The position numbers and the translations under genes were made by a program. From assembly GCF_020969955.1 (NCBI RefSeq), contig NZ_JAHDSX010000055.1:1-13512 (forward strand): 13,512 nucleotides of DNA. Direction: 5' to 3'. Source of the stretch: Allobaculum fili (GTDB lineage Bacteria; Bacillota_I; Bacilli_A; Erysipelotrichales; Erysipelotrichaceae). Positions 1 through 13,512 of this stretch are shown here, piece after piece. The notes under the pieces were generated by a model. It was not told the DNA's origin. It saw only the letters and a list, made by a program, of their open reading frames with translations, and did not search any database. The first letter of the stretch is position 1. Every line of letters begins with the position of its first letter.

Positions 1-49
1 CTTTGGAGAAATCGATACCGAGATCGATTGCAGGGATGATTGATTCCAT
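1..49 (-). CDS. Partial CDS (first 16 codons, MESIIPAIDLGIDFSK) reading leftwards out of the window; probably an IS110-family DEDD transposase.
   Basis: The ATG (reverse complement) lies at 47..49, with AAGGAGG 7 nt upstream on the minus strand. The motif L-G-I-D-F-S-K matches the G-I-D-[VIF]-[SA]-K N-terminal signature, which holds the first Asp of the DEDD motif in IS110-family transposases. Only 16 residues are visible, so the family call is tentative. Confidence 0.4.
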   Translation of the reverse strand, partial: MESIIPAIDLGIDFSK

Positions 50-56
50 GAAAAAG

Positions 57-88
57 CCTCCTTGAATAAAGGAATTATCCCAAGGAGG
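57..88 (-). promoter_or_regulatory. RBS-sequestering hairpin in the leader of the outward-reading gene (left copy).
   Basis: On the sense (minus) strand, CCTCCTTG pairs perfectly (8 bp) with CAAGGAGG across a 16-nt loop. CAAGGAGG is the Shine-Dalgarno sequence itself and sits 7 nt before the ATG. Confidence 0.45.
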
Positions 89-151
89 CGGTCGAGAAAA
101 TACCCGTCTTTTATTTGACGCTTACCGTTCGCACCTCTGGCAGCTCATGCG

Positions 152-190
152 CAAATCAAAAGCCGTCGGAATCAGCATTCCAGACGGCTT
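152..190 (-). terminator. Rho-independent terminator of mscL.
   Basis: The minus-strand RNA reads AAGCCGUC-U-GGAAU GCUG AUUCC GACGGCUU, a 13-bp stem with one bulge. The stem runs into UUGAUUUG and lies about 40 nt after the mscL stop. Confidence 0.8.
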
Positions 191-231
191 GAATGAAATT
201 CGGAATTGTAAAAGGATCGAAATTCGAAACC

Positions 232-651
232 CTATTTGGCGGCGTTTTCCTTGGCCAGCAGGTCGCGGATCTCTTCGAGAAGAACCAGCTGAGGATCCGG
301 CTTTTCTTCTTCGGCCGGTTTTTCCTCTTCTTTTTTCTTCTTGAGCGCATCGGCTTTGGCGCGGGCCGTATTGATGGCTTTGACCATGCAGAATACGACG
401 AGGGCGATGATCAGGAAGTTGAGGATAGCCTGAAGGAAGAGGCCGTACTGCAGTTTTGCGGAGGCGATGGTCACGGACAGATCGGCAATGTTGACACCGG
501 CACAGATCATGCCGACGACAGGCGTAATGATGTCGGTAACGAGGGAGTTGACGATGGCAGTGAAGGCGGAACCCATGATGATACCTACAGCCATATCCAC
601 AACGTTGCCGCGCGAGATAAATTCTTTGAACTCGCTGACGAATTTGCTCAT
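232..651 (-). CDS. mscL: Large-conductance mechanosensitive channel MscL.
   Basis: The ORF is 139 aa. Its N-terminus, MSKFVSEFKEFISRGNVVDMAVGIIMGSAFTAIVNSLV, is the conserved MscL S1/TM1 signature. A second TM helix follows, then a charged KKKKEEEK linker and a C-terminal helix. AAGGAG lies upstream and a terminator downstream. Confidence 0.95.
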   Translation of the reverse strand: MSKFVSEFKEFISRGNVVDMAVGIIMGSAFTAIVNSLVTDIITPVVGMICAGVNIADLSVTIASAKLQYGLFLQAILNFLIIALVVFCMVKAINTARAKADALKKKKEEEKPAEEEKPDPQLVLLEEIRDLLAKENAAK

Positions 652-693
652 TGTTGGAAAATCTCCTTTTCTTTTCTGTATTTTACTGAACGT

Positions 694-1164
694 CTAAGAA
701 GATTTTGGAAGAATCGACCGTATTCCAATCAGATCTCCGTCTTTATCCAGCCAAAGAATACTTTTTTGCGCGTCGTAGTCCACAATGCGAAGCCTTGTCC
801 CGTATTCCTTTTCCAGACGGCGCTTGAGCGCCAGCGTTTCCTTTAGCGGAAGCTGCAGATCCAGAATCGAAAAAGCTTCCAGAAACTGCCGGGAGGAGCG
901 GGTGATGACCACATTGCCTTCAAAGCCTTCCGGATTGCGGTCCGTACAGATCAGCGAAAGCGAAGAGCGCGGGTCGCGCCAGACGAGCGAATATTCCAGA
1001 GGAAAAAGCTGATGACAGCCCTGACACTGGTGCATGAAGTAGGTTCCGTCTTTGAGCCGCTGATACTCCGTGCTTTTCTCATCGCGAATGAGATAGGTAT
1101 CGCGCGAGAGGTAGAAGGAGCGCCCGCAGTGCGGACAGGTAAACGAAAAGAGCCGTTTTTTCAT
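694..1164 (-). CDS. CpXC-type zinc-ribbon domain protein of unknown function.
   Basis: The ORF is 156 aa with an N-terminal CPHCG...(32 aa)...CQGCH pair of Cys knuckles, as in CpXC-domain proteins. It has no TM segment. It sits tightly between the aminopeptidase gene (12-nt gap) and mscL. Confidence 0.6.
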   Translation of the reverse strand: MKKRLFSFTCPHCGRSFYLSRDTYLIRDEKSTEYQRLKDGTYFMHQCQGCHQLFPLEYSLVWRDPRSSLSLICTDRNPEGFEGNVVITRSSRQFLEAFSILDLQLPLKETLALKRRLEKEYGTRLRIVDYDAQKSILWLDKDGDLIGIRSILPKSS

Positions 1165-1176
1165 TCGATTTTGAAT

Positions 1177-2958
1177 TTACGCGTGAATGGGGCGGGTCTT
1201 TTCGTACAGCCAGGCGGCTTCTTCTTCATTCAGACGCGGCGAAATTTCGTCATAGACACGCTGATGATAGGCATTGAGCCAGTCGATCTCGTTCTGTTCC
1301 ATTTCTTTTACGTTGAGACCGCGAACATCAAACGGAACGAGCGTCAGCGCATCGTGCCTGTAAAACTGTCCGAATTCGGTTTCAAATGCCGGAACGGTAA
1401 CGAGCAGGTTTTCGTGACGAATGCCGTACTTGCCTTCGACATACAGACCCGGTTCATCGGAAGTCACCATGCCCGGCATCAGAACGCAGGAATCCTTGCG
1501 TTCCGGAACAATCCGCCAGCGGAAGCCGTTTGGACCTTCGTGTACGCTGAGCACATGACCGACACCATGACCAGTGCCGTGGTTGAAGTCCAGACCGTTT
1601 TTCCAGAGCGGTTCACGGGCGGTAATATCGAGGTTCAGACCGCGGGCGCCCGCCGGGAATACGGCTTTTTCCAGAGCAATGTGTCCCTGCAGCACACGGG
1701 TGAACGCTTCTTTTTCTTCATCCGTCAGATCGCCGACCACAAACGTACGGGTGATATCGGTAGTACCTGGGTAATAATGTCCGCCGGAGTCCACGAGATA
1801 CAGACCGCGGTTTTCAATCACGACGGGATGTTCGTGATCCGGATGATAGTGCGGCATCGACGCATTCGCGCCATACGCAGAAATGGTTGTGAACGATTCT
1901 TCAATAAAGTCCGGCTGAGCGGCACGGAATTCGTGCAGCTGATCGGCAGCCGATGTTTCGGTCAACACATGACCGGCTTTCATTTCGTCTTCCAGCCACT
2001 TCCAGAAGCGGATCATCGCCACCGCGTCCTGCTTGTGCGCTTCACGGAATCCGTTAACTTCGGTTTCGTTTTTGCAGGCTTTCATCAGCTGGATCGGGTT
2101 ATCCTGCCAGATCGGGTTTTCAATCGAACGTCCAATGCGGGAGTTGATGAAGTCGCGATCCATCAGAACCGGTCCTTCCAGAGCTTTTGCATCGTCGTAG
2201 ACCTGATCGTACGGTGCCGTGCGAATGCCGGCTTTTTTCAGGAGTTGGGCACTTGTCGCATCGAGGCGGCTTTCATCGATATAAAGCGTTCCGCCGTCTT
2301 CATCGACAATCGTGTAGGCCAGAGCGACTGGGAAGCTTGGAATATCGTGGGCACGCAGATTATAGAGCCAGGCTACTTCGTCGATCTTGTTGGTAACATG
2401 ATGACGGGCGCCGGCTTTGTTCATGGCCTCACGCAGTTCGGACAGTTTTTCTTCCATGGATTTTCCGGTGTATTTTTCATCGAAATGGGACGTTTCTGTT
2501 GCGGGGAGTTCCGGGCGATCCGGCCAGGCTTCGCCGGCCAGATCCAGACTGGTTTCAATCCGGATGTTCTTTTCGTTCATGCGATCCTGATACTTTTCAA
2601 AGGCATGCATGGAAATGCAGCGGCCGTCGAACGCCAGCGTTCCGCCGTTGTCGACATGATCGAGAATGTACTGTTCAATCGATGGCGTTTCGGGCATGCC
2701 CATTTTCATCAGGTCTACACCAGAGTCTTTCAGCTCCTGGGCAGCCTGCAGGAAATAGCGGCCATCGGTCCAAAGACCCGCCTGATCCTTCAGAACGACC
2801 AGAACGCCGGCACTTCCGGTAAATCCGGAGAAGTGCTTTCTTGCGCCAAAATAGTCGCAGACATATTCGGTATCGTGGAAGTCCGAAGTCGGAATGATGA
2901 CGGCATCCACGTTATGCTCAGCCATTTTTTCTCTGAGCAGTTTTAAAGGTTGATTCAT
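1177..2958 (-). CDS. Xaa-Pro aminopeptidase (aminopeptidase P family, peptidase M24B, long three-domain form).
   Basis: The ORF is 593 aa. Creatinase/prolidase-like N-terminal domains are followed by a pita-bread catalytic domain. The M24B metal-ligand motifs are present: VDSGGHYYPGTTDITRT, HGTGHGVGHVLSVHEGP, VTSDEPGLY and GIRHENL. Confidence 0.9.
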   Translation of the reverse strand: MNQPLKLLREKMAEHNVDAVIIPTSDFHDTEYVCDYFGARKHFSGFTGSAGVLVVLKDQAGLWTDGRYFLQAAQELKDSGVDLMKMGMPETPSIEQYILDHVDNGGTLAFDGRCISMHAFEKYQDRMNEKNIRIETSLDLAGEAWPDRPELPATETSHFDEKYTGKSMEEKLSELREAMNKAGARHHVTNKIDEVAWLYNLRAHDIPSFPVALAYTIVDEDGGTLYIDESRLDATSAQLLKKAGIRTAPYDQVYDDAKALEGPVLMDRDFINSRIGRSIENPIWQDNPIQLMKACKNETEVNGFREAHKQDAVAMIRFWKWLEDEMKAGHVLTETSAADQLHEFRAAQPDFIEESFTTISAYGANASMPHYHPDHEHPVVIENRGLYLVDSGGHYYPGTTDITRTFVVGDLTDEEKEAFTRVLQGHIALEKAVFPAGARGLNLDITAREPLWKNGLDFNHGTGHGVGHVLSVHEGPNGFRWRIVPERKDSCVLMPGMVTSDEPGLYVEGKYGIRHENLLVTVPAFETEFGQFYRHDALTLVPFDVRGLNVKEMEQNEIDWLNAYHQRVYDEISPRLNEEEAAWLYEKTRPIHA

Positions 2959-3473
2959 CGGTTGGTCCCTTCTTTCTGAACCCCATTATAGAAGAGCAAA
3001 CGCCCAACCGGCCAATTCCCGGCCTGAATCGCCCAATTGGACCGGTTATCGCTTTCGCCGGACACCGTTTTGGCTCCTTTGGATTTTTTCGGTTTCCACC
3101 GGGGAATTCAGGTTTGATTTTGTTTCCATTCGTTTTCGGGGTACTTTTCTCTGGCGGCTGTCTCCTGAAGCTTTCCCTTACAGATTGCTCTTCCCGCCTC
3201 CTTTTTTGCCTCTTCTTTTTACCGATCGTTTCTTTGTTCATCGGCTGACCGTTTGTTTTTCCAGGATGGCCGATAACCGCTTCGTTTGCCTGCGGTCAGC
3301 CCGGCAGCAGCCGGAAGGCGCTGCGCTGGTATCCCGTATCCTTTTGGATTCCCTTCTGAAAATCCTTGTCCCGGTTCGAATCGTCACTCTTCTCCAAAGT
3401 CTTCTCCGAATTTTTCTCAGAGACCCATCCCCAGATTCTCGTGCGGATCTTTCGCAGTCTCCGTCTTCTTTTT

Positions 3474-3504
3474 TCCAACACAAAAACGCACCGCGAGGGT
3501 GCGT
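3474..3504 (-). terminator. Rho-independent terminator of the 3543..4559 membrane-protein gene.
   Basis: The minus-strand RNA reads ACGCACC CUCGC GGUGCGU followed by UUUUUGUGUU. It begins 39 nt after the stop codon. Confidence 0.75.
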
Positions 3505-3542
3505 TCCGTTTCAAAAATTCAAGAAGGGGTCTCGATCCGAAC

Positions 3543-4559
3543 TTAAACCTGAACGGGCGCCGTGTTGGGATCGGCGAGATTGTTTGGATCGATGCCTGGA
3601 TCGACCGGAGTTTCTGGCGGGATCGCATTGGGATCCGGCTGTACCTCAGGATTTTCTTCCGGATTCGGTACCGGTTCTTCCGGCTGCGGCTCCGCCTGGG
3701 TTTCCGACTGCTGAGAGGAAGGCTGATCGGGTTTGTTTTCTTCTTCCTGCGGTTTTCGCTCTTCCAGCTCTTTTTCAAACGCTTTGGCGTCTTCCCGGCT
3801 CATCGGCTTATTTTTCACTTCTTCGCTGATGCGCTGTTCGGGGGCCACGTTGTAAATGTTATCGAGGCCGGTCGGGCCGAAGATCGCGAATACCGCCATG
3901 AAAAGGCAGAGCAGAATCGTCTTCACAATATAGAAGCCGACGTTGCGAGCCGGATACGTGTTTTCCAGACGCATGTACTTGAACTGGCGCCACAGAAAGA
4001 ACAGCGGCGTAATGAGTAGCAGCGTCTGCAGCAAATACGCTCCCGGGTTGACCGAGTTAAGGTAATACATCACATCGAAAGCGGCACGGGATTCGATCGC
4101 GTTCGCAAAGAAGAAGGAACGAATCCAGAGCACGTAATGGTTGTAAAAGCCCATGGTCGAAAGCAGACCGATGCCAAATACGAGCGTGGTAAAGAAGATG
4201 ATCGTCCGTTTGATCTTTTTGTTTGTGACCGCCGTCATACGAATCGCGCGCGAAAGCGAGCAAATGTACGTCACAATGAGCCATCCCAGATAAATCCATG
4301 GAGAATACGGAATCCAGGGCGCCAGGATACAGAAGACGATACTCAGAAACAGGAAAATGTTTCCAAGCGTGTCCGTCCTCGAATGCCATCGGCGGATTTT
4401 GCGAATTCCAAACGTGCGGAAGGAAAACGGCGTAGTCAGAATCGACTGCCAGCGCAGCGGGATGAAGATACCGATAATCGCCACGATCAGAACGATCACG
4501 GTATACAGCAGAGCCTGACTGTACTGGGGCGTCTTGAGAATAGTCGTTAAAATATTCAT
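3543..4559 (-). CDS. Uncharacterised multi-pass membrane protein with a C-terminal acidic Pro/Glu-rich tail.
   Basis: The long ORF has about 7 hydrophobic helices. The final ~95 aa are low-complexity (EEENKPDQPSSQQSETQAEPQPEEPVPNPEENPEVQPDPN...). I chose the ATG at 4559, which has GGAG 6 nt upstream. The ORF-track start at 4571 has no SD and sits immediately after a hairpin. I recognise no family. Confidence 0.7.
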   Translation of the reverse strand: MNILTTILKTPQYSQALLYTVIVLIVAIIGIFIPLRWQSILTTPFSFRTFGIRKIRRWHSRTDTLGNIFLFLSIVFCILAPWIPYSPWIYLGWLIVTYICSLSRAIRMTAVTNKKIKRTIIFFTTLVFGIGLLSTMGFYNHYVLWIRSFFFANAIESRAAFDVMYYLNSVNPGAYLLQTLLLITPLFFLWRQFKYMRLENTYPARNVGFYIVKTILLCLFMAVFAIFGPTGLDNIYNVAPEQRISEEVKNKPMSREDAKAFEKELEERKPQEEENKPDQPSSQQSETQAEPQPEEPVPNPEENPEVQPDPNAIPPETPVDPGIDPNNLADPNTAPVQV

Positions 4560-4578
4560 AACATGCTCCATAACGAAA

Positions 4579-4599
4579 GCCTGGAGAGTGGCTCCAGGC
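4579..4599 (-). promoter_or_regulatory. Leader hairpin between the predicted promoter and the start of the 3543..4559 gene.
   Basis: GCCTGGAG agtgg CTCCAGGC forms a perfect 8-bp GC-rich stem. On the minus strand it is followed by UUUCGUU and then the ATG codons. It could be a weak attenuator or an mRNA-stabilising 5' hairpin. Confidence 0.3.
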
Positions 4600-4604
4600 C
4601 GTGA

Positions 4605-4634
4605 ATTGTAAAAAAGTTCTTTCCTATTCTACAA
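4605..4634 (-). promoter_or_regulatory. Sigma-A-type promoter candidate for the 3543..4559 gene.
   Basis: The minus strand reads TTGTAG (4634..4629), an 18-nt spacer, then TACAAT (4610..4605). This lies about 35 nt upstream of the ATG region. Confidence 0.5.
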
Positions 4635-4705
4635 CGCGATTCGGAGTATGGGAAAGTCTGATCTTTTTCCGACGCTATTGAGTCGTCCCAGCAGATCCGA
4701 TCCGC

Positions 4706-5539
4706 TTAGCTGATTCGAGGTTCGTTTTTTCGGTTTCCAAACACCTGACCATGCCATACGTACGCCAGCGCGAATACGACTGCACACACGAGCAGCACGC
4801 TCCATGGCGAAACCGTAATCGCCCCGGGCCAGTTCATTCGGCCGACATAATCCGAACCCAGAAAGCCGATCAGGCAAAGTACGATCGTCAGCCACCGTTT
4901 CCAGCCTTTTGGATAGCGGGCAATGCAGGCGATGAGCAGTTTAGCGACCACGTAGACGCCAAGTGCGGAAATCAGATCACCAGGACCGAAGTGCATCGTC
5001 ATCGGCAGCGCTTCATGCGCGAAAAACGGATCCATCCAGAGATTGATCAATACCTGCTTGATGGCAATCCAGAGCGGAACGAACAGAAGCAGATCCATAC
5101 CTTCTCGAACCCAGTGACTCGTTTTCTTTTTTGCCTTTTCCGCTTGCAAAGTCTGACGCGCCTGCTCGAGCGTCTTGGAAAGCCGGGTTTCCAGCGGTTC
5201 TGGTTCCATTCCTGGTTCCTGCTCTTGTTCCTGTTCACGTTCCTGTTCAAATTTCTGTTCCGGTTTGGCATCGGTTTGATCCGGATTGTTGATGATGGTG
5301 ACCGCGCTTGCTTTCTTACTTACCGTAAGTGAATTGGTCGATCCGCTTGGATGAGCTGGACTGGGTGCATCCAGAGCGCAGACTGTGCTGACCAGATCGC
5401 CGCAAAGCTGCCTCGTCAGATCAAGCGACAGATTGGCTTCCCGAATCTGAATCAGAACCGGCAGCGCATCTGCTCTCGAAAAGCCCGGCAGTCGATACGA
5501 TTCGACTGCCGGTAAATAAATATAGGTATAGAGATTCAT
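4706..5539 (-). CDS. Uncharacterised membrane protein with a soluble N-terminal domain, a Glu/Gln-rich linker and a C-terminal 4-TM region.
   Basis: The ORF is 277 aa. Its start lies 2 nt after the stop of the upstream MscS-family gene, with AAGGAAA upstream. The centre holds an EQEREQEQEQEPGMEPEP low-complexity segment, and the C-terminal half has about 4 hydrophobic helices. I recognise no family. Confidence 0.7.
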   Translation of the reverse strand: MNLYTYIYLPAVESYRLPGFSRADALPVLIQIREANLSLDLTRQLCGDLVSTVCALDAPSPAHPSGSTNSLTVSKKASAVTIINNPDQTDAKPEQKFEQEREQEQEQEPGMEPEPLETRLSKTLEQARQTLQAEKAKKKTSHWVREGMDLLLFVPLWIAIKQVLINLWMDPFFAHEALPMTMHFGPGDLISALGVYVVAKLLIACIARYPKGWKRWLTIVLCLIGFLGSDYVGRMNWPGAITVSPWSVLLVCAVVFALAYVWHGQVFGNRKNEPRIS

Positions 5540-5541
5540 GC

Positions 5542-6366
5542 TTAATTTCCTTTGGTCTCCTTTACGCCTGCAGGAGCAGAAGAAAGGGTGATGACATCCG
5601 TCGGTGCTGCCAGGGCAAGGCTGCTTCGGATTTTCTGAATTTCCTCCTGCAAAGCAAACTTCATATCCCAGAACTGTTCGATCGTGGAGTAGCAGACCAG
5701 ATTGATTTCCATACCGCTGCCGTCGGCCAGATAATCGCCGATCTGGGTTTTCGGTTTTGGATCCTTGAGCACGTACGGGCAGGCTTCCATCGCCTTTTGC
5801 GCTTCACTTCGAAATTCCTGTGGATCCACAAACAGACTGACCGGAACCTTGATGACAAGACGCCGGGAAGGATAGCACGAATAGTTGGTAATGGAATTGG
5901 AAATCAGAACGGTATTGGGAATAACCACTTCCTGATTATCGAACGTTTCCAGGGTAGTAAACATGATTTCAATCGAAACCACTGTGCCTTCACACTCGTT
6001 GCAGGCAATATAGTCTCCCACTTTAAACGGCTTGGTAATCAGAATCTGCAGACCGCTGGCTACGTTGGACATGTTGTCCTTTAATGCCAGAGAAATGCCA
6101 AGGCCTAATGCGGAAAATGCGCCGACAGCTACCGACATATCCACACCGATCTGGCCTAAGGCAATAATAATCGCAATGATGCGAATCAGAATGTTCGCCA
6201 GCGATCCGGTAAATGTCAGTACGCCTTCATCCACACCTTTTCGATTGTGCAGACGCAAAATCAGACGCTTAACCGCAGGTCCTAAAAAGAAACCGATCAC
6301 CAGTTCAATCGTGGCCGCAAGAAGCTTCATCAAGAAATTGTTATGAATAAACTGTTCCCAGCTCAT
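5542..6366 (-). CDS. mscS: Small-conductance mechanosensitive channel (MscS family).
   Basis: Three N-terminal TM helices are followed by the MscS beta-domain signature KPFKVGDYIACNECEGTVVSIEIMFTTLETFDNQEVVIPNTVLISNSITNYS. I prefer the ATG at 6366 (AAGGAG 9 nt upstream) over the TTG at 6369 used in the ORF track. Confidence 0.9.
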   Translation of the reverse strand: MSWEQFIHNNFLMKLLAATIELVIGFFLGPAVKRLILRLHNRKGVDEGVLTFTGSLANILIRIIAIIIALGQIGVDMSVAVGAFSALGLGISLALKDNMSNVASGLQILITKPFKVGDYIACNECEGTVVSIEIMFTTLETFDNQEVVIPNTVLISNSITNYSCYPSRRLVIKVPVSLFVDPQEFRSEAQKAMEACPYVLKDPKPKTQIGDYLADGSGMEINLVCYSTIEQFWDMKFALQEEIQKIRSSLALAAPTDVITLSSAPAGVKETKGN

Positions 6367-6423
6367 CAATCCTCACTCCTTTCCAAAATTTGCAGAATTG
6401 GGATGGGACGGGTAAAACCGACA

Positions 6424-6460
6424 GAAAAAAACTGTGCCATACCATAAGGATACAGCACAG
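6424..6460 (-). terminator. Rho-independent terminator of gltX.
   Basis: The minus-strand RNA has a CUGUGC...GCACAG stem followed by a run of seven U. It begins 37 nt after the gltX stop. Confidence 0.7.
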
Positions 6461-6497
6461 TAATGGTTTAAGTCGGAACGATTCCTGAAGGAAACGA

Positions 6498-7958
6498 CTA
6501 GGCGAGCACCTCTTCGAGACGCGCGATTCCCTGATCAATTCGAGCGAGGGATTCGTCTTTGCCCAGGATATGCACGATTTCAATCGCGCCGCCCGGGGTG
6601 AACTGCTTGCCGGATACGGCAGTACGTACAGGCCAGAGAACCTGCCCGTTTTTCATGCCCATTTCCTTTGGCAGAGCAAGCAGAGTTTCGTGAACGTTTT
6701 CTTCTGTCCAGTCCTGAATACCGGCAATGGCTTCACGCGCGGCTTTCAGTGCGGTCAGGGCCGTTTCCGGTGTGGATTTCATTTTCTTGTGACGATACAT
6801 CTCGAGATCGTAGTCGCCTGGCTGATCAAAGAAATCAACAGCCTCTTCGATCTGGTTGAGAATATCGATACGCGGCTGGATGATCTTCGCGATTTCACGA
6901 TGGGAATACGGACCTTTGACAGCTTTTTCCAGATACGGTCTAACCGTTTCAAAGTATGTATCCTCATCCATGCTGCGCAGATAGACGCCGTTCATCCAGG
7001 TCAGTTTGTCGATATCGAAAATCGCCGGAGAGCGGGAAATGCGGGATACATCGAAGACATCGATCAGCTCTTCGAGCGTGTAGATCTCCTGCTCCGTTGG
7101 CGGTGCCCAGCCCAGCAGCGCAATGTAGTTGATAATGGCAGCGGGCAGATAGCCTTTGGCTACGAGATCCTGGAAGGACGCATCGCCGTTACGCTTGGAC
7201 AGCTTATGCTTCTCATCTTTCATTACGGGCGGAACGTGAACATAAGTAGGTCTTTCCCATCCATACGCGTCATAAATCAGGTTGTATTTCGGGGTCGAAG
7301 ACAGGTATTCGTTGCCGCGAACAACGTGGCTGATTTCCATCGTGTGGTCATCGATGATGTTGGCGAAGTTATACGTAGGATAGCCGTCGGATTTCAGCAG
7401 GATCTGCTCGTCGAGCAGGTCGCCGTCAAATTCGATGTGGCCGTAAACCATGTCATCAAAGGATGTTTCTCCGACATTGGAAATGGTCTGACGAATAACA
7501 AACGGATCACCGCGATCGATACGCTCCTGCACTTCCTTGGCATCAAGATGCTTGCAGGGATCGTCAAACTTGAAGGAAATACCGAGGGATTCAGCTTCCT
7601 TGCGCTGCGCTTCAATTTCCTCTTCCGAGCAGAAGCAGTAGTGGGCATGGCCGGTTTTTACGAGTTCTTCGGCATAGCCTTTATACATAGGAAGACGCTC
7701 AGACTGAATATACGGTCCGAAATTGCCGCCGATATCTGGTCCTTCGTCCCAGTTCAGGCCGACATCTTTCAGAGTTTTATAAATAATATCTACTGCGCCT
7801 TCGACTTTTCGTCCCTGGTCCGTATCTTCAATACGAAGCAGGAAGTCGCCGTTATCGTGTTTGGCAATCAGATACTCAAACAGAGCTGTACGCAGGTTGC
7901 CAATGTGCATATAGCCAGTCGGAGATGGGGCAAAACGAGTTCTAACTTTACGAGACAA
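6498..7958 (-). CDS. gltX: Glutamate--tRNA ligase (glutamyl-tRNA synthetase).
   Basis: The class I HIGH-region motif RTRFAPSPTGYMHIGNLRTALFEYL and the KMSKS-type motif KLSKRNG are present, and the ORF has full-length GltX architecture. I placed the start at the TTG at 7958, with AAGGAG (7973..7968) 9 nt upstream. The ORF-track ATG at 7982 has no SD and lies upstream of the predicted transcription start. Confidence 0.95.
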   Translation of the reverse strand: MSRKVRTRFAPSPTGYMHIGNLRTALFEYLIAKHDNGDFLLRIEDTDQGRKVEGAVDIIYKTLKDVGLNWDEGPDIGGNFGPYIQSERLPMYKGYAEELVKTGHAHYCFCSEEEIEAQRKEAESLGISFKFDDPCKHLDAKEVQERIDRGDPFVIRQTISNVGETSFDDMVYGHIEFDGDLLDEQILLKSDGYPTYNFANIIDDHTMEISHVVRGNEYLSSTPKYNLIYDAYGWERPTYVHVPPVMKDEKHKLSKRNGDASFQDLVAKGYLPAAIINYIALLGWAPPTEQEIYTLEELIDVFDVSRISRSPAIFDIDKLTWMNGVYLRSMDEDTYFETVRPYLEKAVKGPYSHREIAKIIQPRIDILNQIEEAVDFFDQPGDYDLEMYRHKKMKSTPETALTALKAAREAIAGIQDWTEENVHETLLALPKEMGMKNGQVLWPVRTAVSGKQFTPGGAIEIVHILGKDESLARIDQGIARLEEVLA

Positions 7959-7982
7959 AACAATCAACTCCTTAACATACAA

Positions 7983-8011
7983 ATCTTAATGGATTATTTT
8001 CCTTTTGACAA
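7983..8011 (-). promoter_or_regulatory. Sigma-A-type promoter candidate for gltX.
   Basis: The minus strand reads TTGTCA (8011..8006), a 17-nt spacer, then TAAGAT (7988..7983). This implies a short leader that contains the AAGGAG RBS. Confidence 0.5.
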
Positions 8012-8094
8012 ACCGCCCTCCCACCCCTGCAGTGCGCGTAACCTTTTTCGCCGCCATTCTCTATTTTCAATCCGCGAACGTTTAGAAACGCATG

Positions 8095-8139
8095 CAAAAA
8101 AGCAGCCTTCCTCATGCTAGAGCACGTTAGGAAAGCTGC
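8095..8139 (-). terminator. Rho-independent terminator closing the pilus operon.
   Basis: The minus-strand RNA reads GCAGCUUUCCU...AGGAAGGCUGC, an 11-bp stem with one G-U pair, followed by UUUUUU. It begins 79 nt after the base-pilin stop. Confidence 0.8.
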
Positions 8140-8217
8140 TGATTTTCCATCTAAGTTCCGCACTAAGCGGATAGAAATGGATAAGCGTTTTAGGCTGTTT
8201 CTTCTTCTGCCCGGCGC

Positions 8218-8985
8218 TTACCGGTTCGATTTATCACGGGAAAGCTTTCTCTGCGTGAAGATCAGAATGATCGTTGCGGAAAGAGCAATCCAGATCCAAA
8301 GGTTGGCACTAAGCGCTGCGGCAGTGTTCGGTCCATGGCCCTTGGTGGGGGGATTCGAGGAGCTGGAGTTGCTTCCCGATCCATTCGAACCGCCAGGTTT
8401 GCTTCCTGAATCACTTGGCTTATTGCCTGAATCAGACTTGTCGCTGCTGGAGCCGGAGGAAGTGTCCGAGCTGTCATCGCCCGGGTCGATCGTCGGCTTG
8501 TACTGAATTTCCTGCATGGTATCGCGTTTCGCCTGATCCGACGCCGCATGATCCATTGACGGATAGGCCTTCACGACAGCCACCAGGCCGTCTTCACCAT
8601 TCGTGATCGAAACGCGGATCGTCGTATCGTCTTCAATCAGCAGTTCACAGTTGTCTCCCTCGATCAGATCGGAAACGAGCACGTAATAGTAGTCGCCAGG
8701 GACGGTATACGTGATATTTCCAAACCAGTCTTTCCCTTCGCCGTTAATGCGAAGTACGGTTTTCTGAGGAAGCGGTGCGCCGTCAACAGCTTCAAGTCGG
8801 AATTCCGTTACAACCGATACTTCGGGACCCGGTTTCGGTTTTCCTTCCGTAAAGAAGGTGGAAACCGGGATGTTTACATCGACTGAAGACGCCGCGTAAA
8901 CCGAAATCGGCTGAAAGGACATCACGAATAGAAGACCGGCAAGAAGAAGATGCTTAATTTTGTTCATACGAATTTTCATTAGCAT
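8218..8985 (-). CDS. Small ancillary (base-type) pilin with an isopeptide-linkage pilin domain, a Ser/Gly/Asp-rich stalk and a C-terminal sorting-signal-like anchor.
   Basis: A signal peptide (MLMKIRMNKIKHLLLAGLLFVMSFQPISVYA) is followed by a single pilin domain, FRLEAVDGAPLPQKTVLRINGEGKDWFGNITYTVPGDYYYVLVSDLIEGD...IRVSITNGEDGLVAVV. This follows the Spy0128/T-antigen-type pattern. A low-complexity DSSDTSSGSSSDKSDSGNKPSDSGSKPGGSNGSGSNSSSS stalk comes next, then NPPTKGHGPNTAAA, a hydrophobic helix and an RKLSRDKSNR tail. A strong AGGAGG lies 6 nt before the ATG at 8985, and the gene overlaps the sortase gene by 32 nt. Confidence 0.7.
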   Translation of the reverse strand: MLMKIRMNKIKHLLLAGLLFVMSFQPISVYAASSVDVNIPVSTFFTEGKPKPGPEVSVVTEFRLEAVDGAPLPQKTVLRINGEGKDWFGNITYTVPGDYYYVLVSDLIEGDNCELLIEDDTTIRVSITNGEDGLVAVVKAYPSMDHAASDQAKRDTMQEIQYKPTIDPGDDSSDTSSGSSSDKSDSGNKPSDSGSKPGGSNGSGSNSSSSNPPTKGHGPNTAAALSANLWIWIALSATIILIFTQRKLSRDKSNR

Positions 8986-9727
8986 TCTTCACCTCCTGCT
9001 TATTCTGGATGCGGCCAAAGAGAAGGACGCGTCCATTTGTTTCAACGTCATAGCAAGTCGAAAGAGCAATGATCTGCTGATCCGGCTTTACGCCGATATC
9101 GCGGTACTGCTGGCAGTCTTTTTTGAGCCGTTCCAGGAATCGTCCGTCAAGAGTCGAAGCTCCCTGCGGAATGGAATATACGTCCGGGTCTGCAGCATCA
9201 GTTTTCAGTACCGCAAACACTTCGATATCCCATTGCGAATCCAGAGAATACAGCGTCCCCGTTTTGTGATCATCGAAATAGTCCTTTTTCAGGAACTTCG
9301 TCAGATCTCCGAACATTCCGCCGTTTTCCATATGATGTCCATACAGCAGCGAATAGGGATCCGAGAAGTCCAGGCTGTTCAGACAGGAAAGGAAGATCGA
9401 ACCCGAAAGAGAGAAGTCTCCCAGAGGATCCTTATTCACATATTCCATGTCATCCTTGCCCTGAACAATCGGCTGGTCGATATGTGTATCATCGATCGTA
9501 ATCCATCCGATCACGTCTTTGTTCATCGCCACCAGTTCATCCATTGACCAGGACTGGCCAGGAGCCGGTTTGTATTTCATCAGATCGGAACCAAAGCCTG
9601 CCTGCGACAAGCGCCAGTTGTCCAGGAGAGAATAGCCGCCGTACAGCATCATGCAAAGAACAAGAATCATTGCGATGAAACTGATCAGTCGATCTCCCAT
9701 CCGGGCCAGTTTTGCAGCTCTGTCCAT
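8954..9727 (-). CDS. Class-B-type sortase (pilus-polymerising transpeptidase).
   Basis: The protein has an N-terminal membrane anchor and the SrtB-like block DVIGWITIDDTHIDQPIVQGKDDMEYVNKD...GSIFLS. The catalytic residues are present: His in LLYGHHM, Cys in ALSTCY and Arg in GRVLLFGR. AAGGAG lies 10 nt upstream. Confidence 0.9.
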   Translation of the reverse strand: MDRAAKLARMGDRLISFIAMILVLCMMLYGGYSLLDNWRLSQAGFGSDLMKYKPAPGQSWSMDELVAMNKDVIGWITIDDTHIDQPIVQGKDDMEYVNKDPLGDFSLSGSIFLSCLNSLDFSDPYSLLYGHHMENGGMFGDLTKFLKKDYFDDHKTGTLYSLDSQWDIEVFAVLKTDAADPDVYSIPQGASTLDGRFLERLKKDCQQYRDIGVKPDQQIIALSTCYDVETNGRVLLFGRIQNKQEVKNANENSYEQN

Positions 9728-9745
9728 TTAACTCTTTCTCCTTTG

Positions 9746-9775
9746 TTCATGAGAAGCTCTAAATCTTCTTATGAA
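9746..9775 (-). promoter_or_regulatory. Intercistronic hairpin between the backbone pilin and sortase genes.
   Basis: TTCATGAGAAG ctctaaat CTTCTTATGAA forms an 11-bp stem with one mismatch. No U-tract follows, and it ends 2 nt before the sortase RBS. Confidence 0.4.
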
Positions 9776-9805
9776 TTCGTCTATTCCAGATTCGATGATC
9801 CGAAA

Positions 9806-10861
9806 TTAGTCTTCGCGTTTACGACGGAAGAACATGCCAGCGAATACACCGCCCAGACCAACTACAGCTACATAAGGAGCAGCAGTCATCAGGATACCCG
9901 TGGGAACGTTACCATCTTTGGTGTTGGTGAATTTGATTTTATCTTCCTGTCCATCGTTGATTGCAATGTTTTCAGCTTTGGATCCAGGGAGATCAGCCGC
10001 ATCATTAATGCTGTGTTTTGCTTCATACCCAGCTCTCTGCTCTTCTACTGTGTAGATATCATCAGCTGTCAAACCGTCAATCGTTACGAATTCACTGTCA
10101 GCAAGTTTGAAGATGTAAGTCACCTGATCATCTGCTGTACTAGTGGCCGGAGTAATCTCTTGATTGTTATTACTTTTAATGGTGAATGTCTGTCCAGGCT
10201 TTTTCGTAACAGTGAGCGTGAAGTCAAATTTCTGCGCCTTGTCTCCCTGATTACCACCTACAGTTTTGGAGACAGTCAGCGGACGCGTATCATACTCATG
10301 CGCAAACACGAGGTCATCTTCCTTGCCTGCTGGATCGGTTACGTCTGTGCCAGCCTTTCTGAAGGTATAACTCTTGATTACCTTATTGGTGCCCTCCCAT
10401 TCTACGTTTACATACAGATCGTAAGTCTTCGTATCCACAGTAACTCCGTGGTAGTTATCACCAGTTTTGTCATCAGCGCTGATCGTGTATTTAAATACAC
10501 CGGCTCCTTTAAAAGCATTTACGTTGTCACATACGATCCTGCTCTGGGTGTACTCAATAATATTTTTAGTAGTATCAACATCTTCTGGAGCTGCATCAGC
10601 TTCTACATGCAGATTGGGTGCAGCTTCACCGTTGAAAATCGTACCTCCAGCAGCCGTCTCAGACCATTCAGAATCACCTATAGCAGGCGTGATCGTATAG
10701 GAGAAGGTTGTAGCTGTTGCAGGGTGATGTCCATCGTGAGTAGTTAAAGTTGTGTTGAATGTTGGTGTACTGCCCTCAGCTGCGAAGATCGGAGTAGCTA
10801 CGCTAGCCAGAGAAATCATGCTTGCTGCTGTAAGAGCTGCGAGAGACTTAAAGTTTTTCAT
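9806..10861 (-). CDS. Backbone (major) pilin, Spy0128/T-antigen-like, with an NVPTG sorting signal.
   Basis: I placed the start at the ATG at 10861 (GAGGA 6 nt upstream), giving the signal peptide MKNFKSLAALTAASMISLASVATPIFA. The ORF-track start at 10915 adds 18 non-signal residues. The C-terminal Cna-B-like domain reads RPLTVSKTVGGNQGDKAQKFDFTLTV...YTVEE. The C-terminus, KDGNVPTGILMTAAPYVAVVGLGGVFAGMFFRRKRED, is a VPTG motif followed by a helix and a basic tail. Confidence 0.75.
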   Translation of the reverse strand: MKNFKSLAALTAASMISLASVATPIFAAEGSTPTFNTTLTTHDGHHPATATTFSYTITPAIGDSEWSETAAGGTIFNGEAAPNLHVEADAAPEDVDTTKNIIEYTQSRIVCDNVNAFKGAGVFKYTISADDKTGDNYHGVTVDTKTYDLYVNVEWEGTNKVIKSYTFRKAGTDVTDPAGKEDDLVFAHEYDTRPLTVSKTVGGNQGDKAQKFDFTLTVTKKPGQTFTIKSNNNQEITPATSTADDQVTYIFKLADSEFVTIDGLTADDIYTVEEQRAGYEAKHSINDAADLPGSKAENIAINDGQEDKIKFTNTKDGNVPTGILMTAAPYVAVVGLGGVFAGMFFRRKRED

Positions 10862-10983
10862 TTTCTTTCCTCTTTCACATTTCTCAATGAATCGGTATAA
10901 GCCCTGGACCGACATAAACCAAATTCCGAGAAATTTTTTATGATTTGTTATTCAAAGTTAAATCTTTGAAAGGGCGGCTGAAT

Positions 10984-11541
10984 TTAGAGAGAGACGCGGC
11001 GGAGAATCGTGGAAACTTTTCCAATAATGTTTTCCCGCTCAACAGGGCCAAACTGCCGGCTGTCGGCTGCGCCTTCTCGAAAGTCGCTCAAAATGAAATA
11101 TTCATTGTCGCCAAGAAGCAATGGGTACGTAACGTCTGAATCGTATGCAGGGGTGGAATAATAAATCTCTCCTTCACTGACGGTTCCGTTATTTACTTTC
11201 AGCTTCGCATCTTCGGTAATTTCTACCGTATCGCCGGGCCGTGCGACAATTCTTCCGGTCCGGACTTTACCGTTTGCCTCATAGGAAACGATATCGTTGT
11301 TCCATAAATTCGAGGGAAAGCAGTAGACCAGAGCAATGTCACCAGACCGAAGTGCAGGTTTCATGTCATCACCGGAAACGATTGTGAGTCGGAAGACGAC
11401 GCCAAACAGGACATAAATGAAGAGGATTAGTCCCGCCAGCCGAGTCAGAAAGGATTTGATGTCTCGCCGATCCAGTAAATCCTTTCGCCTTCGAGCAATC
11501 ACTGCTTCCGGGGTAACTGGTTTTGCTTTCTTTTTTTGCAT
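10984..11541 (-). CDS. Signal peptidase I (S26) homologue lacking the catalytic Ser/Lys dyad; a SipA/LepA-like pilin assembly factor.
   Basis: The ORF is 185 aa with one N-terminal TM helix. The S26 boxes are recognisable but mutated. Box B reads VSGDDMKPAL, with D59 where the nucleophile Ser belongs (consensus GDSMxPTL). Box D reads TGRIVARPGD, with G96 where the general-base Lys belongs (consensus KRxIGLPGD). Box E reads SDFREGAADSR (consensus GDNRxxSxDSR). The gene sits between the adhesin and backbone pilin genes. Confidence 0.8.
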   Translation of the reverse strand: MQKKKAKPVTPEAVIARRRKDLLDRRDIKSFLTRLAGLILFIYVLFGVVFRLTIVSGDDMKPALRSGDIALVYCFPSNLWNNDIVSYEANGKVRTGRIVARPGDTVEITEDAKLKVNNGTVSEGEIYYSTPAYDSDVTYPLLLGDNEYFILSDFREGAADSRQFGPVERENIIGKVSTILRRVSL

Positions 11542-11576
11542 TGATTTCTAACCTCTTATATGGAGCATTTAAATTT

Positions 11577-11870
11577 TTATTCGCTAAGCGAAGAGGAATC
11601 GCTGCTTTTGAGTTTCTGGATTTCCAGATCTTTTTCATCCAGCAAAGCTCGGTAGTACGATTCCTGACACGCCATGACGGTTCGATAGGCTTTCTGCAAT
11701 TCTTCCATCTGACGCCATACGCTCAGCTCACTTACACCGCCAAAAGTCTTTTTGGTAAATTTCATCTGGGAAATGAACTGAGCCAGATCCTCCATGTTCT
11801 TGCAGGATTCCGGGCTCATTTTTTCTTTTTTCTCAGGTGTGGTTTTCCCTTTGCTTTTAGCGCTGCTCAT
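11577..11870 (-). CDS. Small cytoplasmic Lys-rich / coiled-coil protein of unknown function, with a possible DivIVA-like or HTH-like motif.
   Basis: The ORF is 97 aa from the ATG at 11870, with AAGGAA 7 nt upstream; the ORF track starts at the GTG at 11876. It has no signal peptide or TM segment. The segment FTKKTFGGVSELSVWRQMEEL loosely fits the DivIVA N-terminal pattern F-x4-RGY-x4-V-x3-L, and a predicted helix follows. It overlaps the adhesin 3' end by 14 nt. Confidence 0.55.
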   Translation of the reverse strand: MSSAKSKGKTTPEKKEKMSPESCKNMEDLAQFISQMKFTKKTFGGVSELSVWRQMEELQKAYRTVMACQESYYRALLDEKDLEIQKLKSSDSSSLSE

Positions 11871-13269
11871 GTTCACGTTCCTTTTGGAAAATTAAGGAAT
11901 AGGCTGCGAGAGCCAGAATGCCTAAAGCACCGCCGGTAACAAGAACTGAATTTTCTTCACTGTCATCGTGAAGACCACCAGGAACAGTTCCCTGCTTTTC
12001 ATTCTGGAAGATTACCACTGTTTCCCCGTTAAACTCTTTTGATCCAGTATCGTTCGTACTACCAGATTCCGTCTTCGTTTGAGTGGTGATTTTGTAGGAT
12101 GCGGTGTATCCCAATGGATCTTCCCACACCTGATAATGACCGCCTTGCGGAACATTGAAAATGCATTGATCACCATTACTCAGATCAAATGTGTACCATC
12201 CTGCGTCGTCAGGCTCAATCGCTGAGTTTGCAGACAGATAAGGCTTGTAGTCGCTATCTAACACTCGAACGTGGAACTCAAACTTCTGCGTTCGATCCGC
12301 AAAGTTACCCACAACACTTTTTCGAACAATGAGCTGTTTCAAATCCAAAGCCCACTGCGCATAAAAGGTCGTATTTTCGTTCAGAATGTAAGGATCCAGA
12401 CTGTGATAGATCGTCTGTCCAGTTCCATCCGGAGTTTTCGTCCAGCCAAGGAAAATATATCCAACGCGCTCAGGGACAACTTCTTTTCCATCACTGTCAT
12501 GACCTACTGTGATCTCAGTCCCAAGCTCTTTCTGATATCCAGAAGGTACCTGGACTGAGTTATCATCACAGTTTCGATTGTATGTAACGTTGACAAGCTG
12601 CTTTTTCAATACAACTCCGTCTACATGCCATCTTCCTTTTCCTTCATTTTCGGAAAGGTTTTGAAGCTTTTGCACATACCAGAGCACATAATCAGTTTCC
12701 GGATCAAAATCATGGCCTGCTTTCTTCATCACATTTTGAATCTGATCTGCGGTCGGAAGGACATTCAGTTTTTGTGAAACATCATTTAAGGCGTTGACTT
12801 TCGGGTCGTTTTTTTCCACATAACCGTTATGGCTGTTGTCAATAATCCAACGTTCTTCCTGAATTGCTCCCTCAATCTTGATCATGTCCGTGTAATCGCC
12901 AGTCTTGTAATCACTCGGTTCGAATGGGATCTCACCATCTAACCGGATATAGAACTCTGCAGGCAAATTAACACTCTCATCTTGCCAGATTGCGTAAAGC
13001 GTTTGATTCTCCTGCGTAAGCTGATAAGGCGTAGAGGCTGGATACAGAGGATCTCCATTACCGTTTCGCAGATCCTTTGAAATAGACCAGCCCAGGAATT
13101 TATATCCTGGTCGTTCTACGTTCACATCTGGAAGAGTGACGATTTCTCCTCGCTGCCCTGTTTTTGGTTGCAGGACAAGATCAGGTCCACCGTTATTGTC
13201 GAAGTTCAACACATACATATCAGGTGTCTTTTTCCGATAGACCAAATCCGCTGAGAAGCTGTAATCCAA
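11857..13269 (-). CDS. Pilus tip-type adhesin fragment with two Listeria-Bacteroides (Flg_new) repeats, a Cna-B-like domain and a C-terminal anchor. It is 5'-truncated at the IS junction and is probably a pseudogene.
   Basis: The two repeats are YVLNFDNNGG...GYKFLGWSI...QTLYAIW and VNVTYNRN...GYIFLGWTKTPDGTG...TTFYAQW. The Cna-B-like domain is LIVRKSVVGNFADRTQKFEFHVRVL...YQVWEDPLGYTASYKI. The C-terminus is GTVPGGLHDDSEENSVLVTGGALGILALAAYSLIFQKEREHEQR. The only start is a TTG at 13269 with no SD, and there is no signal peptide. The same frame stays open for 42 more codons up to a TGA at 13396..13398 inside the repeat. Confidence 0.7.
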   Translation of the reverse strand: MDYSFSADLVYRKKTPDMYVLNFDNNGGPDLVLQPKTGQRGEIVTLPDVNVERPGYKFLGWSISKDLRNGNGDPLYPASTPYQLTQENQTLYAIWQDESVNLPAEFYIRLDGEIPFEPSDYKTGDYTDMIKIEGAIQEERWIIDNSHNGYVEKNDPKVNALNDVSQKLNVLPTADQIQNVMKKAGHDFDPETDYVLWYVQKLQNLSENEGKGRWHVDGVVLKKQLVNVTYNRNCDDNSVQVPSGYQKELGTEITVGHDSDGKEVVPERVGYIFLGWTKTPDGTGQTIYHSLDPYILNENTTFYAQWALDLKQLIVRKSVVGNFADRTQKFEFHVRVLDSDYKPYLSANSAIEPDDAGWYTFDLSNGDQCIFNVPQGGHYQVWEDPLGYTASYKITTQTKTESGSTNDTGSKEFNGETVVIFQNEKQGTVPGGLHDDSEENSVLVTGGALGILALAAYSLIFQKEREHEQR

Positions 13270-13425
13270 AGATTGTGTCTCAGAATAACTCTGTTCATTC
13301 TTATAGCAGTAAGAAGCAGTAATACCTTTTTTACTCTTGGTTAACTGAATCTCATCAATAATATAAACGCTACCTCCGCCAGTCTTCTGTAAGCGTCAAA
13401 TAAAAGACGGGTATTTTCTCGACCG

Positions 13426-13457
13426 CCTCCTTGGGATAATTCCTTTATTCAAGGAGG
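13426..13457 (+). promoter_or_regulatory. RBS-sequestering hairpin in the leader (right copy).
   Basis: CCTCCTTG (13426..13433) pairs with CAAGGAGG (13450..13457). The ATG is at 13465. Confidence 0.45.
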
Positions 13458-13464
13458 CTTTTTC

Positions 13465-13512
13465 ATGGAATCAATCATCCCTGCAATCGATCTCGGTATC
13501 GATTTCTCCAAA
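13465..13512 (+). CDS. Partial CDS (first 16 codons, MESIIPAIDLGIDFSK) reading rightwards out of the window; probably an IS110-family DEDD transposase.
   Basis: It is identical to the left copy. AAGGAGG lies 7 nt upstream of the ATG at 13465, and the GIDFSK motif is present. Confidence 0.4.
   Translation, partial: MESIIPAIDLGIDFSK

Follow-up and report, generated by a model that had tools for sequence, protein, structure and literature searches.

The main finding of this study is that the window, the whole stretch of 13,512 nt analysed here, is with high confidence (probability about 0.95) a short-read contig from a human-gut bacterium, Allobaculum sp. Allo2 or a strain indistinguishable from it. 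It covers the unique chromosomal DNA that separates two full-length copies of an IS66-family IS, and runs 125 nt (left) and 124 nt (right) into them. Two inverted IS copies flanking a chromosomal contig are an ordinary feature. Perfect terminal inverted repeats on a contig therefore do not have to mean a linear replicon, a foldback artefact or some exotic element; this window is simply a stretch of unique DNA with a multicopy IS, in inverted orientation, on either side. Its features are as follows.

1..125, minus strand: left end (IRL-proximal, 125 nt) of IS66-family copy A, identical to the start of independently delimited 2,487-bp copies
100-125, minus strand: IRL of copy A, 26 bp
50-125, minus strand: leader of copy A, 76 nt
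2-49, minus strand: tnpB codons 1-16 of copy A, position 1 being the first base of codon 17
126..133, minus strand: 8-bp target duplication of copy A, TGCGAACG (minus strand), which flanks both copy ends in L114
134..13380, nearly all genes on the minus strand: native chromosomal segment (Pfam and conspecific collinearity)
232..651, minus strand: mscL, the last gene before copy A (PF01741, E=1.5e-42)
6498..7982, minus strand: gltX (glutamyl-tRNA synthetase), a core gene inside the IS pair (PF00749, E=4e-98; PF19269)
8218..11541, minus strand: downstream pilus genes (Pfam; same gene order in conspecific contigs)
8218-8985, minus strand: 255-aa protein
8954-9727, minus strand: sortase
9806-10915, minus strand: FctA/DUF7601 pilin, probable start 10861
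10984-11541, minus strand: S26 signal-peptidase-like protein
11857..13388, minus strand: 3' part of the pilus adhesin gene left by the insertion (codons 374-882 of 882), frame open up to the IS boundary
13381..13388, minus strand: 8-bp target duplication of copy B, AGAAGACT (minus strand), which flanks both copy ends in L113/L114
13389..13512, plus strand: left end of IS66-family copy B (124 nt, IRL-proximal), matching the start of the IS without a difference
13389-13414, plus strand: IRL of copy B
13389-13464, plus strand: leader of copy B
13465-13512, plus strand: tnpB codons 1-16 of copy B

The two ends of the window form a perfect inverted repeat of 124 nt (2-125 versus 13389-13512, 100% complementary, 13,263 nt apart), for which a repeat search and a string comparison upheld the coordinates given in a preliminary description of this DNA. 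A perfect match of this length in 13.5 kb cannot have arisen by chance; the runner-up inverted repeats in the window are only 20-30 nt long and match at 73-85%. Direct reading also upheld the anatomy proposed earlier. From its inner edge, each arm has a 76-nt leader, with an AAGGAGG ribosome-binding site 7 nt 5' of an ATG, and then the first 16 codons of tnpB, reading outward (MESIIPAIDLGIDFSK). Position 1 (C, or G on the minus strand) is element sequence too—a 63-nt pattern ending in this G has an exact match in two other IS copies on metagenome contigs—and the element thus accounts for 125 nt at the left end of the window and 124 nt at the right. This pattern had copies in the metagenome collection alone, with no exact match among genome contigs or viral contigs, and the continuation of the IS beyond the window was first read in two metagenome contigs.

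A further result is the delimitation of this unnamed element. It is 2,487 bp long and comprises, in order, the 76-nt leader, tnpB (128 aa) and tnpC (613 aa). Its ends were set by four independent flanks, all diverging exactly at GTAAGCG, and consist of imperfect 26-bp terminal inverted repeats starting GTAAG, in which IRL (GTAAGCGTCAAATAAAAGACGGGTAT) and the reverse complement of IRR (GTAAGTGTCAAACAATCGACGGGTAT) match at 22/26 positions. In long assemblies, all seven complete copies, at six sites, measure 2,487 bp and have perfect 8-bp target duplications, and identity among copies is 99.6-100%. TnpB matches the Pfam profile PF05717 (E=3e-29, 101.3 bits, cut-off 26.6) and the NCBIfam equivalog NF033819 (E=4.4e-25, 87.4 bits, cut-off 50). 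TnpC, encoded directly downstream of tnpB as in the IS66 family, matches the IS66 DDE transposase profile PF03050 (E=8.9e-60, 202.9 bits, cut-off 23.1) and NF033517 (E=1.2e-77, 261.6 bits, cut-off 180), with a sub-threshold zf-IS66 match in its N terminus. On the strength of these profile matches the element is assigned to the IS66 family, in a two-gene form (tnpB plus tnpC). It departs from the canonical three-gene tnpA-tnpB-tnpC organisation: profile searches of the TnpC N terminus gave no TnpA-like match, and there is no room for tnpA elsewhere since the non-coding spans before tnpB, between tnpB and tnpC, and after tnpC are only 76, 92 and 90 nt and fit no other ORF. A consensus promoter scan of the 76-nt leader returned nothing. 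In the mechanism we envisage, the DDE transposase TnpC would recognise the terminal repeats and join them to an 8-bp staggered cut, and the element would be active in transposition.

The preliminary description had instead seen in the repeats the ends of an IS110-family element of 1.2-1.6 kb, present twice and encoding a DEDD transposase, a reading to which we now give almost no credence. It was drawn from a six-residue motif, the N-terminal LGIDFSK, which resembles the GIDVSK of IS110 transposases and is the sole sequence support for it, apart from an unrelated IS110-family fragment that abuts the element in one contig (L001). This motif lies within the 18 residues ahead of the TnpB domain, and the likeness is a chance one that stops at the short GIDxSK stretch: the protein folds and families differ, the 128-aa ORF matches TnpB_IS66, and the ORF that follows is an IS66 DDE transposase, both above curated cut-offs. 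Neither protein of the element matches DEDD_Tnp_IS110 or Transposase_20, the lone Transposase_20 match being the unrelated neighbour in L001. Terminal inverted repeats of 26 bp and 8-bp duplications, together with a length of 2,487 bp, are not typical IS110 traits. The IS110 homology that had been named as the check on the downstream ORF is thus absent, and both the family and the size are corrected here.

Comparison with known groups highlights similarities and differences. Elements of the IS66, IS679 and ISRm14 type, reportedly the canonical members of the IS66 family, likewise have TnpB_IS66 followed by DDE_Tnp_IS66 with a zinc-finger region, terminal inverted repeats of ~26 bp starting GTAAG, 8-bp duplications and a length of ~2.5 kb; IS66 terminal repeats are in general said to be ~20-30 bp long and to begin 5'-GTAA. 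Unlike these, our element has no tnpA (orf1), its left end lies just 76 nt before tnpB, and its TnpC is long (613 aa), with 25-31% identity to annotated plasmid IS66 transposases. Absence of tnpA is no obstacle to IS66 membership, since subgroups such as ISBst12 that lack it are still filed there. Members of the ISBst12 group (e.g., ISDge4) have a single ORF of ~450 aa and no tnpB; their terminal repeats are imperfect and start GTRAC/GTAA, and their direct repeat is 8 bp long (PMC12898284). They share with our element the transposase superfamily, the imperfect terminal repeats and the 8-bp repeat (PMC12898284), whereas our element retains tnpB.

The sites occupied by the two copies are well defined. 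At both of its ends the window is matched by IS-free conspecific contigs as far as the base adjoining GTAAGCG (126 and 13388). Copy A was inserted 106 bp beyond the mscL stop codon, between the convergent mscL and aminotransferase genes, and its empty site reads ...GGTGCGAACG/TCCAAAG in nine conspecific contigs. Copy B interrupts the pilus adhesin gene between codons 373 and 374 of its 882; in L083 and L090 the empty site reads ...GTTCAAGCGA/AGAAGACTGG. The arrangement of the pair was read from CP078088.1, the complete 2.73-Mb chromosome of Allobaculum sp. Allo2, which aligns with the whole window with 0 substitutions. The alignment has 25 indels; in 24 cases CP078088.1 lacks 1 nt of a homopolymer, which marks it as a long-read consensus. 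A literature search for CP078088 found no mention of it. In this chromosome copy A (L114 16229-18712) and copy B (L114 504-2988, minus strand there) are both full length, inverted and outward facing, and each has its own perfect, matching 8-bp duplication (TGCGAACG and AGAAGACT, respectively), which upholds the earlier proposal of two inverted, outward-facing copies of one IS continuing past the window. The outer flanks are the 5' part of the adhesin gene and the aminotransferase gene, as the empty sites predict. Because each copy is flanked by its own duplication, the pair goes back to two independent simple insertions, and the enclosed segment is in its ancestral orientation; the inverted copies have their left ends inward, so that at either end of the window tnpB is read outward. 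Of these two separate events, each of which left an 8-bp target duplication, one hit the intergenic region beyond mscL and the other the first gene of the sortase-pilus operon.

It was also necessary to consider whether the pair is real. The contig might be a foldback or chimera, or its junctions might come from different strains, with no molecule carrying the IS at both ends, and the fact that the window ends inside the repeat is what such an artefact would look like. Joins across this IS can indeed be unreliable: three metagenome-style, short-read contigs (L001, L002 and L111) traverse it without matching duplications, which may reflect mis-joins across the collapsed repeat or recombination between copies. 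However, the start of the repeat in the window is no arbitrary point but coincides with the tip of an IS that was delimited independently, both flanks are collinear with empty sites, and a single 2.73-Mb chromosome without substitutions relative to the window has both complete copies with the correct duplications. The presence of both junctions on one molecule is read from CP078088.1, a separate assembly of apparently the same strain. The artefact that the preliminary description wished to see excluded is therefore strongly disfavoured, and we regard it as extremely unlikely.

Two further explanations accept the pair as genuine and differ on how it arose. One-step intramolecular replicative transposition could have inverted the 13.2-kb segment while generating the second copy, or recombination between the copies could have inverted it later. 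Inverted copies with like ends inward are the product geometry expected from such events, and within the window the flank/IRL junctions at both ends fit every scenario alike. An inversion product would, however, split each duplication pair, leaving a single IS copy with AGAAGACT at one end and CGTTCGCA at the other. In the finished chromosome each copy instead has the same 8-bp duplication on both sides, in direct orientation, and the outer flanks follow the ancestral gene order, which makes an inverted origin very unlikely. The earlier suggestion that the enclosed segment may invert holds in principle, since homologous recombination could use the two inverted 2.5-kb copies as a substrate. The sole arrangement seen in CP078088.1, however, is the ancestral, uninverted one. 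Alternatively, the IS pair and the DNA between them could be a functional 18.2-kb compound transposon that imported gltX and the pilus island, a notion prompted by the bracketing of the segment by two inverted copies of a presumably active IS. The odds of this are minute. The segment is found IS-free, in the same place and with the same neighbours, in at least 10 conspecific contigs, its core part is syntenic across the genus, and the duplications flank each IS and not the composite. We saw no IS-segment-IS unit at a second genomic location, and where a compound transposon would have a single outer duplication around foreign DNA, each IS here has its own and the segment is native.

Why the contig ends where it does probably follows from the abundance of the element. 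In the 2.73-Mb CP078088.1 at least two copies were directly seen, and its protein records list at least four distinct tnpB products, which sets bounds on copy number there, and one related 1.11-Mb contig has at least 10 tnpB places. The assembler, presumably unable to resolve a near-identical multicopy repeat of 2.5 kb, would have stopped about one k-mer inside it; that the contig was broken at a multicopy repeat, as had been suspected, is shown directly by the finished chromosome of the same strain. At other insertion sites, further conspecific contigs break off after 27, 28 or 123 nt of this IS end. No polymorphism among IS copies occurs near position 125, the nearest variable site being position 184. 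The apparent length of 124 nt was probably set by assembler k-mer size and not by biology, and numerically 124/125 nt would fit k=127 less 2-3 flank bases that other copies have in common. Gut Allobaculum assemblies contain the element in abundance and are fragmented by it.

The enclosed segment contains mscL and the genes for a CpXC protein, an Xaa-Pro aminopeptidase, two membrane proteins, mscS, gltX and the sortase-pilus operon. It is collinear with IS-free conspecific contigs at 96-98.6% identity, and synteny of its core is conserved within the genus. The hairpin terminator of mscL was read from the sequence, at about 160-190. GltX is 83-87% identical to its counterparts in Allobaculum relatives; a scan of GTDB species representatives with this protein returned only genus-level relatives (at most 87% identity), which served for synteny and not for empty sites. 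Exact-protein look-ups gave matches for the signal peptidase, the CpXC protein, the pilin allele and MscS, and none for the MscL of the window. An Rfam scan of the window found no RNA family and no T-box upstream of gltX.

For a gut bacterium associated with mucus, the disruption of the pilus operon by copy B holds modest interest. The interrupted adhesin gene is the first of the operon, and its remnant, with Flg_new and DUF7601 domains, is 96% identical to residues 374-882 of an intact 882-aa protein. The insertion is predicted to leave codons 374-882 without a promoter, a start codon or a signal peptide, and is probably polar on the downstream pilus genes, which would give a pilus-defective variant. 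Five independent insertion sites of the element lie within ~25 kb across samples, one of them knocking out this tip adhesin. From this one might imagine a tnpA-less IS66 element expanding in human-gut Allobaculum, with the pilus/gltX region as a selected target, and with insertions or recombination between the pair acting as a heritable on/off switch for the pilus under host immune pressure, but we consider this scenario improbable. An exact-protein look-up of the 453-aa truncated adhesin product gave no match. As a separate observation on the operon, its major pilin is hypervariable between strains.

The ends of the window carry the perfect inverted repeat reported in the preliminary description: both a repeat search and direct string comparison show positions 2-125 and 13389-13512 to be 100% complementary over 124 nt, with a spacing of 13,263 nt. 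This is not a chance repeat, since the remaining inverted repeats within the window are only 20-30 nt long and 73-85% complementary. Each arm consists, from its inner edge outward, of a 76-nt leader, the ribosome-binding site AAGGAGG and 16 codons (MESIIPAIDLGIDFSK) directed out of the window. Position 1 is also part of the repeated element, which leaves 125 nt of it at the left end and 124 nt at the right.

1-125, minus strand: end of the insertion sequence (IS), mscL side
8218-13388: pilus operon, in the order adhesin, 97-aa ORF, S26 signal-peptidase-like protein, FctA/DUF7601 pilin, sortase, 255-aa protein
13389-13512, plus strand: end of the IS, adhesin side

The repeated element is a two-gene (tnpB-tnpC) IS66-family member. 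An exact search with 63 nt of the repeat found no match in species-representative genomes or viral contigs, and hit two contigs from human-gut metagenomes, both with the repeat in their interior. There the ORF starting MESIIPAIDLGIDFSK ends after only 128 aa, and an ORF of 613 aa comes next. The shorter product is an IS66 TnpB (PF05717, E=3e-29; NCBIfam equivalog NF033819, E=4e-25) and the longer one an IS66-family DDE transposase (PF03050, E=9e-60; NF033517, E=1e-77), all matches being above curated cut-offs; the N terminus of the transposase also has a sub-threshold zf-IS66 match. An earlier assignment to IS110, based on a GIDxSK-like string within the 18 residues preceding the TnpB domain, is rejected by these profile matches, and neither protein gave a hit to DEDD_Tnp_IS110 or Transposase_20 in profile searches. 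The element agrees with the IS66 family in transposase and TnpB, in its 8-bp duplication, in inverted repeats of the GTAAG type and in size. There is no room for tnpA, so the element has two genes, unlike the canonical three-gene IS66 type and unlike the ISBst12 type, which has a single gene (PMC12898284). RefSeq automatic annotation already names its proteins IS66 family; we found no description of this IS itself beyond these auto-annotated proteins, and TnpC shares only 25-31% identity with the nearest IS66 transposases annotated on plasmids. A transposase 100% identical to TnpC (WP_300923958.1; 10 taxa in UniRef) is listed by NCBI under Turicimonas muris, a betaproteobacterium, which could be assembly contamination or a very recent cross-phylum transfer. 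In L001, one of the compared contigs, the element directly adjoins an IS110-family transposase fragment (2841-3362; Transposase_20, E=7e-10), a coincidence with respect to the earlier guess.

The boundaries of the IS are sharply defined. GTAAGCG is the exact divergence point of four left flanks that are independent of one another (the window supplies two, the contigs L001 and L002 one apiece), the opposite end reads ...GACACTTAC, and the 26-bp terminal inverted repeats are imperfect (22/26 matching). The element is 2,487 bp long, exactly so in all seven complete copies from long assemblies, which occupy six distinct sites with perfect 8-bp target-site duplications. From what is known of the family, TnpC would bind the terminal repeats and join them to target DNA cut with an 8-bp stagger. 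Copies differ at 0-9 positions, which fits a recent expansion. The Allo2 chromosome encodes at least 4 distinct tnpB products, one related 1.11-Mb contig has the IS at 10 or more places, and the transposase occurs in 472 blocks of the collection, the longest contig being just 2-5 kb, about the size of the element alone, in 424 of them.

Approximately 20 IS-free contigs of the same species, found by exact-protein look-ups and 96-98.6% identical in nucleotide sequence, align with the window precisely to bases 126 and 13388. The gltX-mscS-...-pepP-CpXC-mscL order is core synteny kept in Allobaculum relatives, and GltX, 83-87% identical to that of named relatives, places the organism within Allobaculum or adjacent to it. 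The left site, 106 bp past the mscL stop, is intergenic and precedes a convergent aminotransferase gene; its empty form reads ...GGTGCGAACG, followed across the junction by TCCAAAG. The right site (empty form ...GTTCAAGCGA, then AGAAGACTGG) lies inside the pilus adhesin gene, of whose 882 residues the window keeps 374-882 at 96% identity, in a frame uninterrupted as far as the IS. Both breaks coincide exactly with the tip of an IS whose ends were defined independently, which argues against a random chimera or foldback.

The pilin allele and MscS of the window are also present in the complete 2,728,410-bp chromosome CP078088.1, whose proteins NCBI labels Allobaculum sp. Allo2. Over the whole window it differs by 25 indels and 0 substitutions; in 24 of the indels CP078088.1 lacks one base of a homopolymer run. 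This long-read consensus signature shows that CP078088.1 and the window are the same strain. Across 1041460-1066774 such deletions (24 over 13.5 kb when compared with the window) break up the calls for pepP, the sortase and the signal peptidase as well as both tnpC genes, and gltX goes uncalled; of the two sequences, that of the window is the more accurate here. At the adhesin end the order is adhesin 5' part, AGAAGACT, full-length IS with tnpC and tnpB on the opposite strand, AGAAGACT, adhesin 3' part and the rest of the window; at the other it is mscL, TGCGAACG, full-length IS, TGCGAACG, aminotransferase. The two copies differ by 0 substitutions. On both sides, then, the identity extends over a complete element in an assembly of long-read type, as proposed for two inverted copies of one IS, and the assembly or foldback artefact that had to be considered is excluded by both copies being full-length and by the breaks at the IS tips.

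Each copy has its own duplication in direct orientation and ancestral outer neighbours, which shows two independent simple insertions and a segment that is not inverted in CP078088.1. Had the pair arisen in one intramolecular replicative step, or had an inversion followed, the duplication pairs would now be separated; the former is rejected, as is the latter for CP078088.1, in whose assembly inversion was not seen. The segment belongs natively to this locus, which excludes a compound-transposon origin. As the preliminary description held, inverted copies, here of 2.5 kb, could plausibly serve as a substrate for homologous recombination. Overall, the contig is bounded by two independently inserted, inverted copies of a multicopy IS, a real but ordinary arrangement.

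The 124-nt length reflects the assembly break point, not biology. Other conspecific contigs stop inside the same IS end at other sites, after 27 and 28 nt in Logan assemblies and after 123 nt in one from ENA, and no polymorphism among IS copies occurs near position 125. A de Bruijn contig entering a multicopy repeat would end at the first k-mer common to another copy, the break point being k minus the few flank bases shared by chance with that copy; k=31 would give 27-28 nt and k=127 would give 123-125 nt. This model would account for the 125 versus 124 asymmetry and imply many IS copies.

Closely spaced pairs of the IS are common in these genomes. L103 (GCA_965643355.1, 2446-7842) has a second inverted pair, right ends inward, enclosing only 2.3 kb with a peptidase M15 gene and rplS, and in L104 two copies lie in direct orientation at a distance of 2.2 kb. 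L109 (GCA_964261755.1, 2380-2521) carries a head-to-tail dimer, at the site of the single copy of L108, whose IRR-IRL junction is short by 24 nt (16 IRR + 8 IRL); this may represent a transposition intermediate or dimer, a near-palindrome deletion or a long-read assembly error. Contigs L001, L002 and L111 run through the IS but lack matching target duplications, suggestive of either recombination between copies or mis-joins where the repeat collapsed. In other samples the IS lies at two sites 7 bp apart, window 8057 and 8064 (L086 7529, L084 13466), about 75-82 nt ahead of the gltX ORF and in the same orientation as gltX; one of these alleles recurs at 8 further similar places. L101 has an insertion about 8 kb beyond mscL. 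With the two in the window, this makes five independent sites within about 25 kb.

The adhesin gene, broken after codon 373, is the first of the pilus operon, whose gene order resembles that of streptococcal FCT-type pilus loci; the island is absent upstream of gltX in the other Allobaculum species examined. Its insertion, like that at mscL, bears an 8-bp duplication. Its probable outcome is loss of the tip adhesin together with a polar effect on pilus assembly; the insertion beside mscL, between convergent genes, is probably neutral. The 255-aa protein has a Ser/Gly/Pro-rich tail. No Rfam family (e.g., T-box) was found upstream of gltX (7983-8217) or elsewhere in the window, and a 585-bp pyrimidine-rich, low-complexity intergenic stretch (2959-3542) runs from pepP to a membrane-protein gene. 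The centre (about 9933-10779) of the major pilin gene (9806-10915; 346-358 aa across strains) is the sole non-aligning stretch between conspecific contigs, with flanks 96-98.6% identical, which suggests allelic or antigenic diversification.
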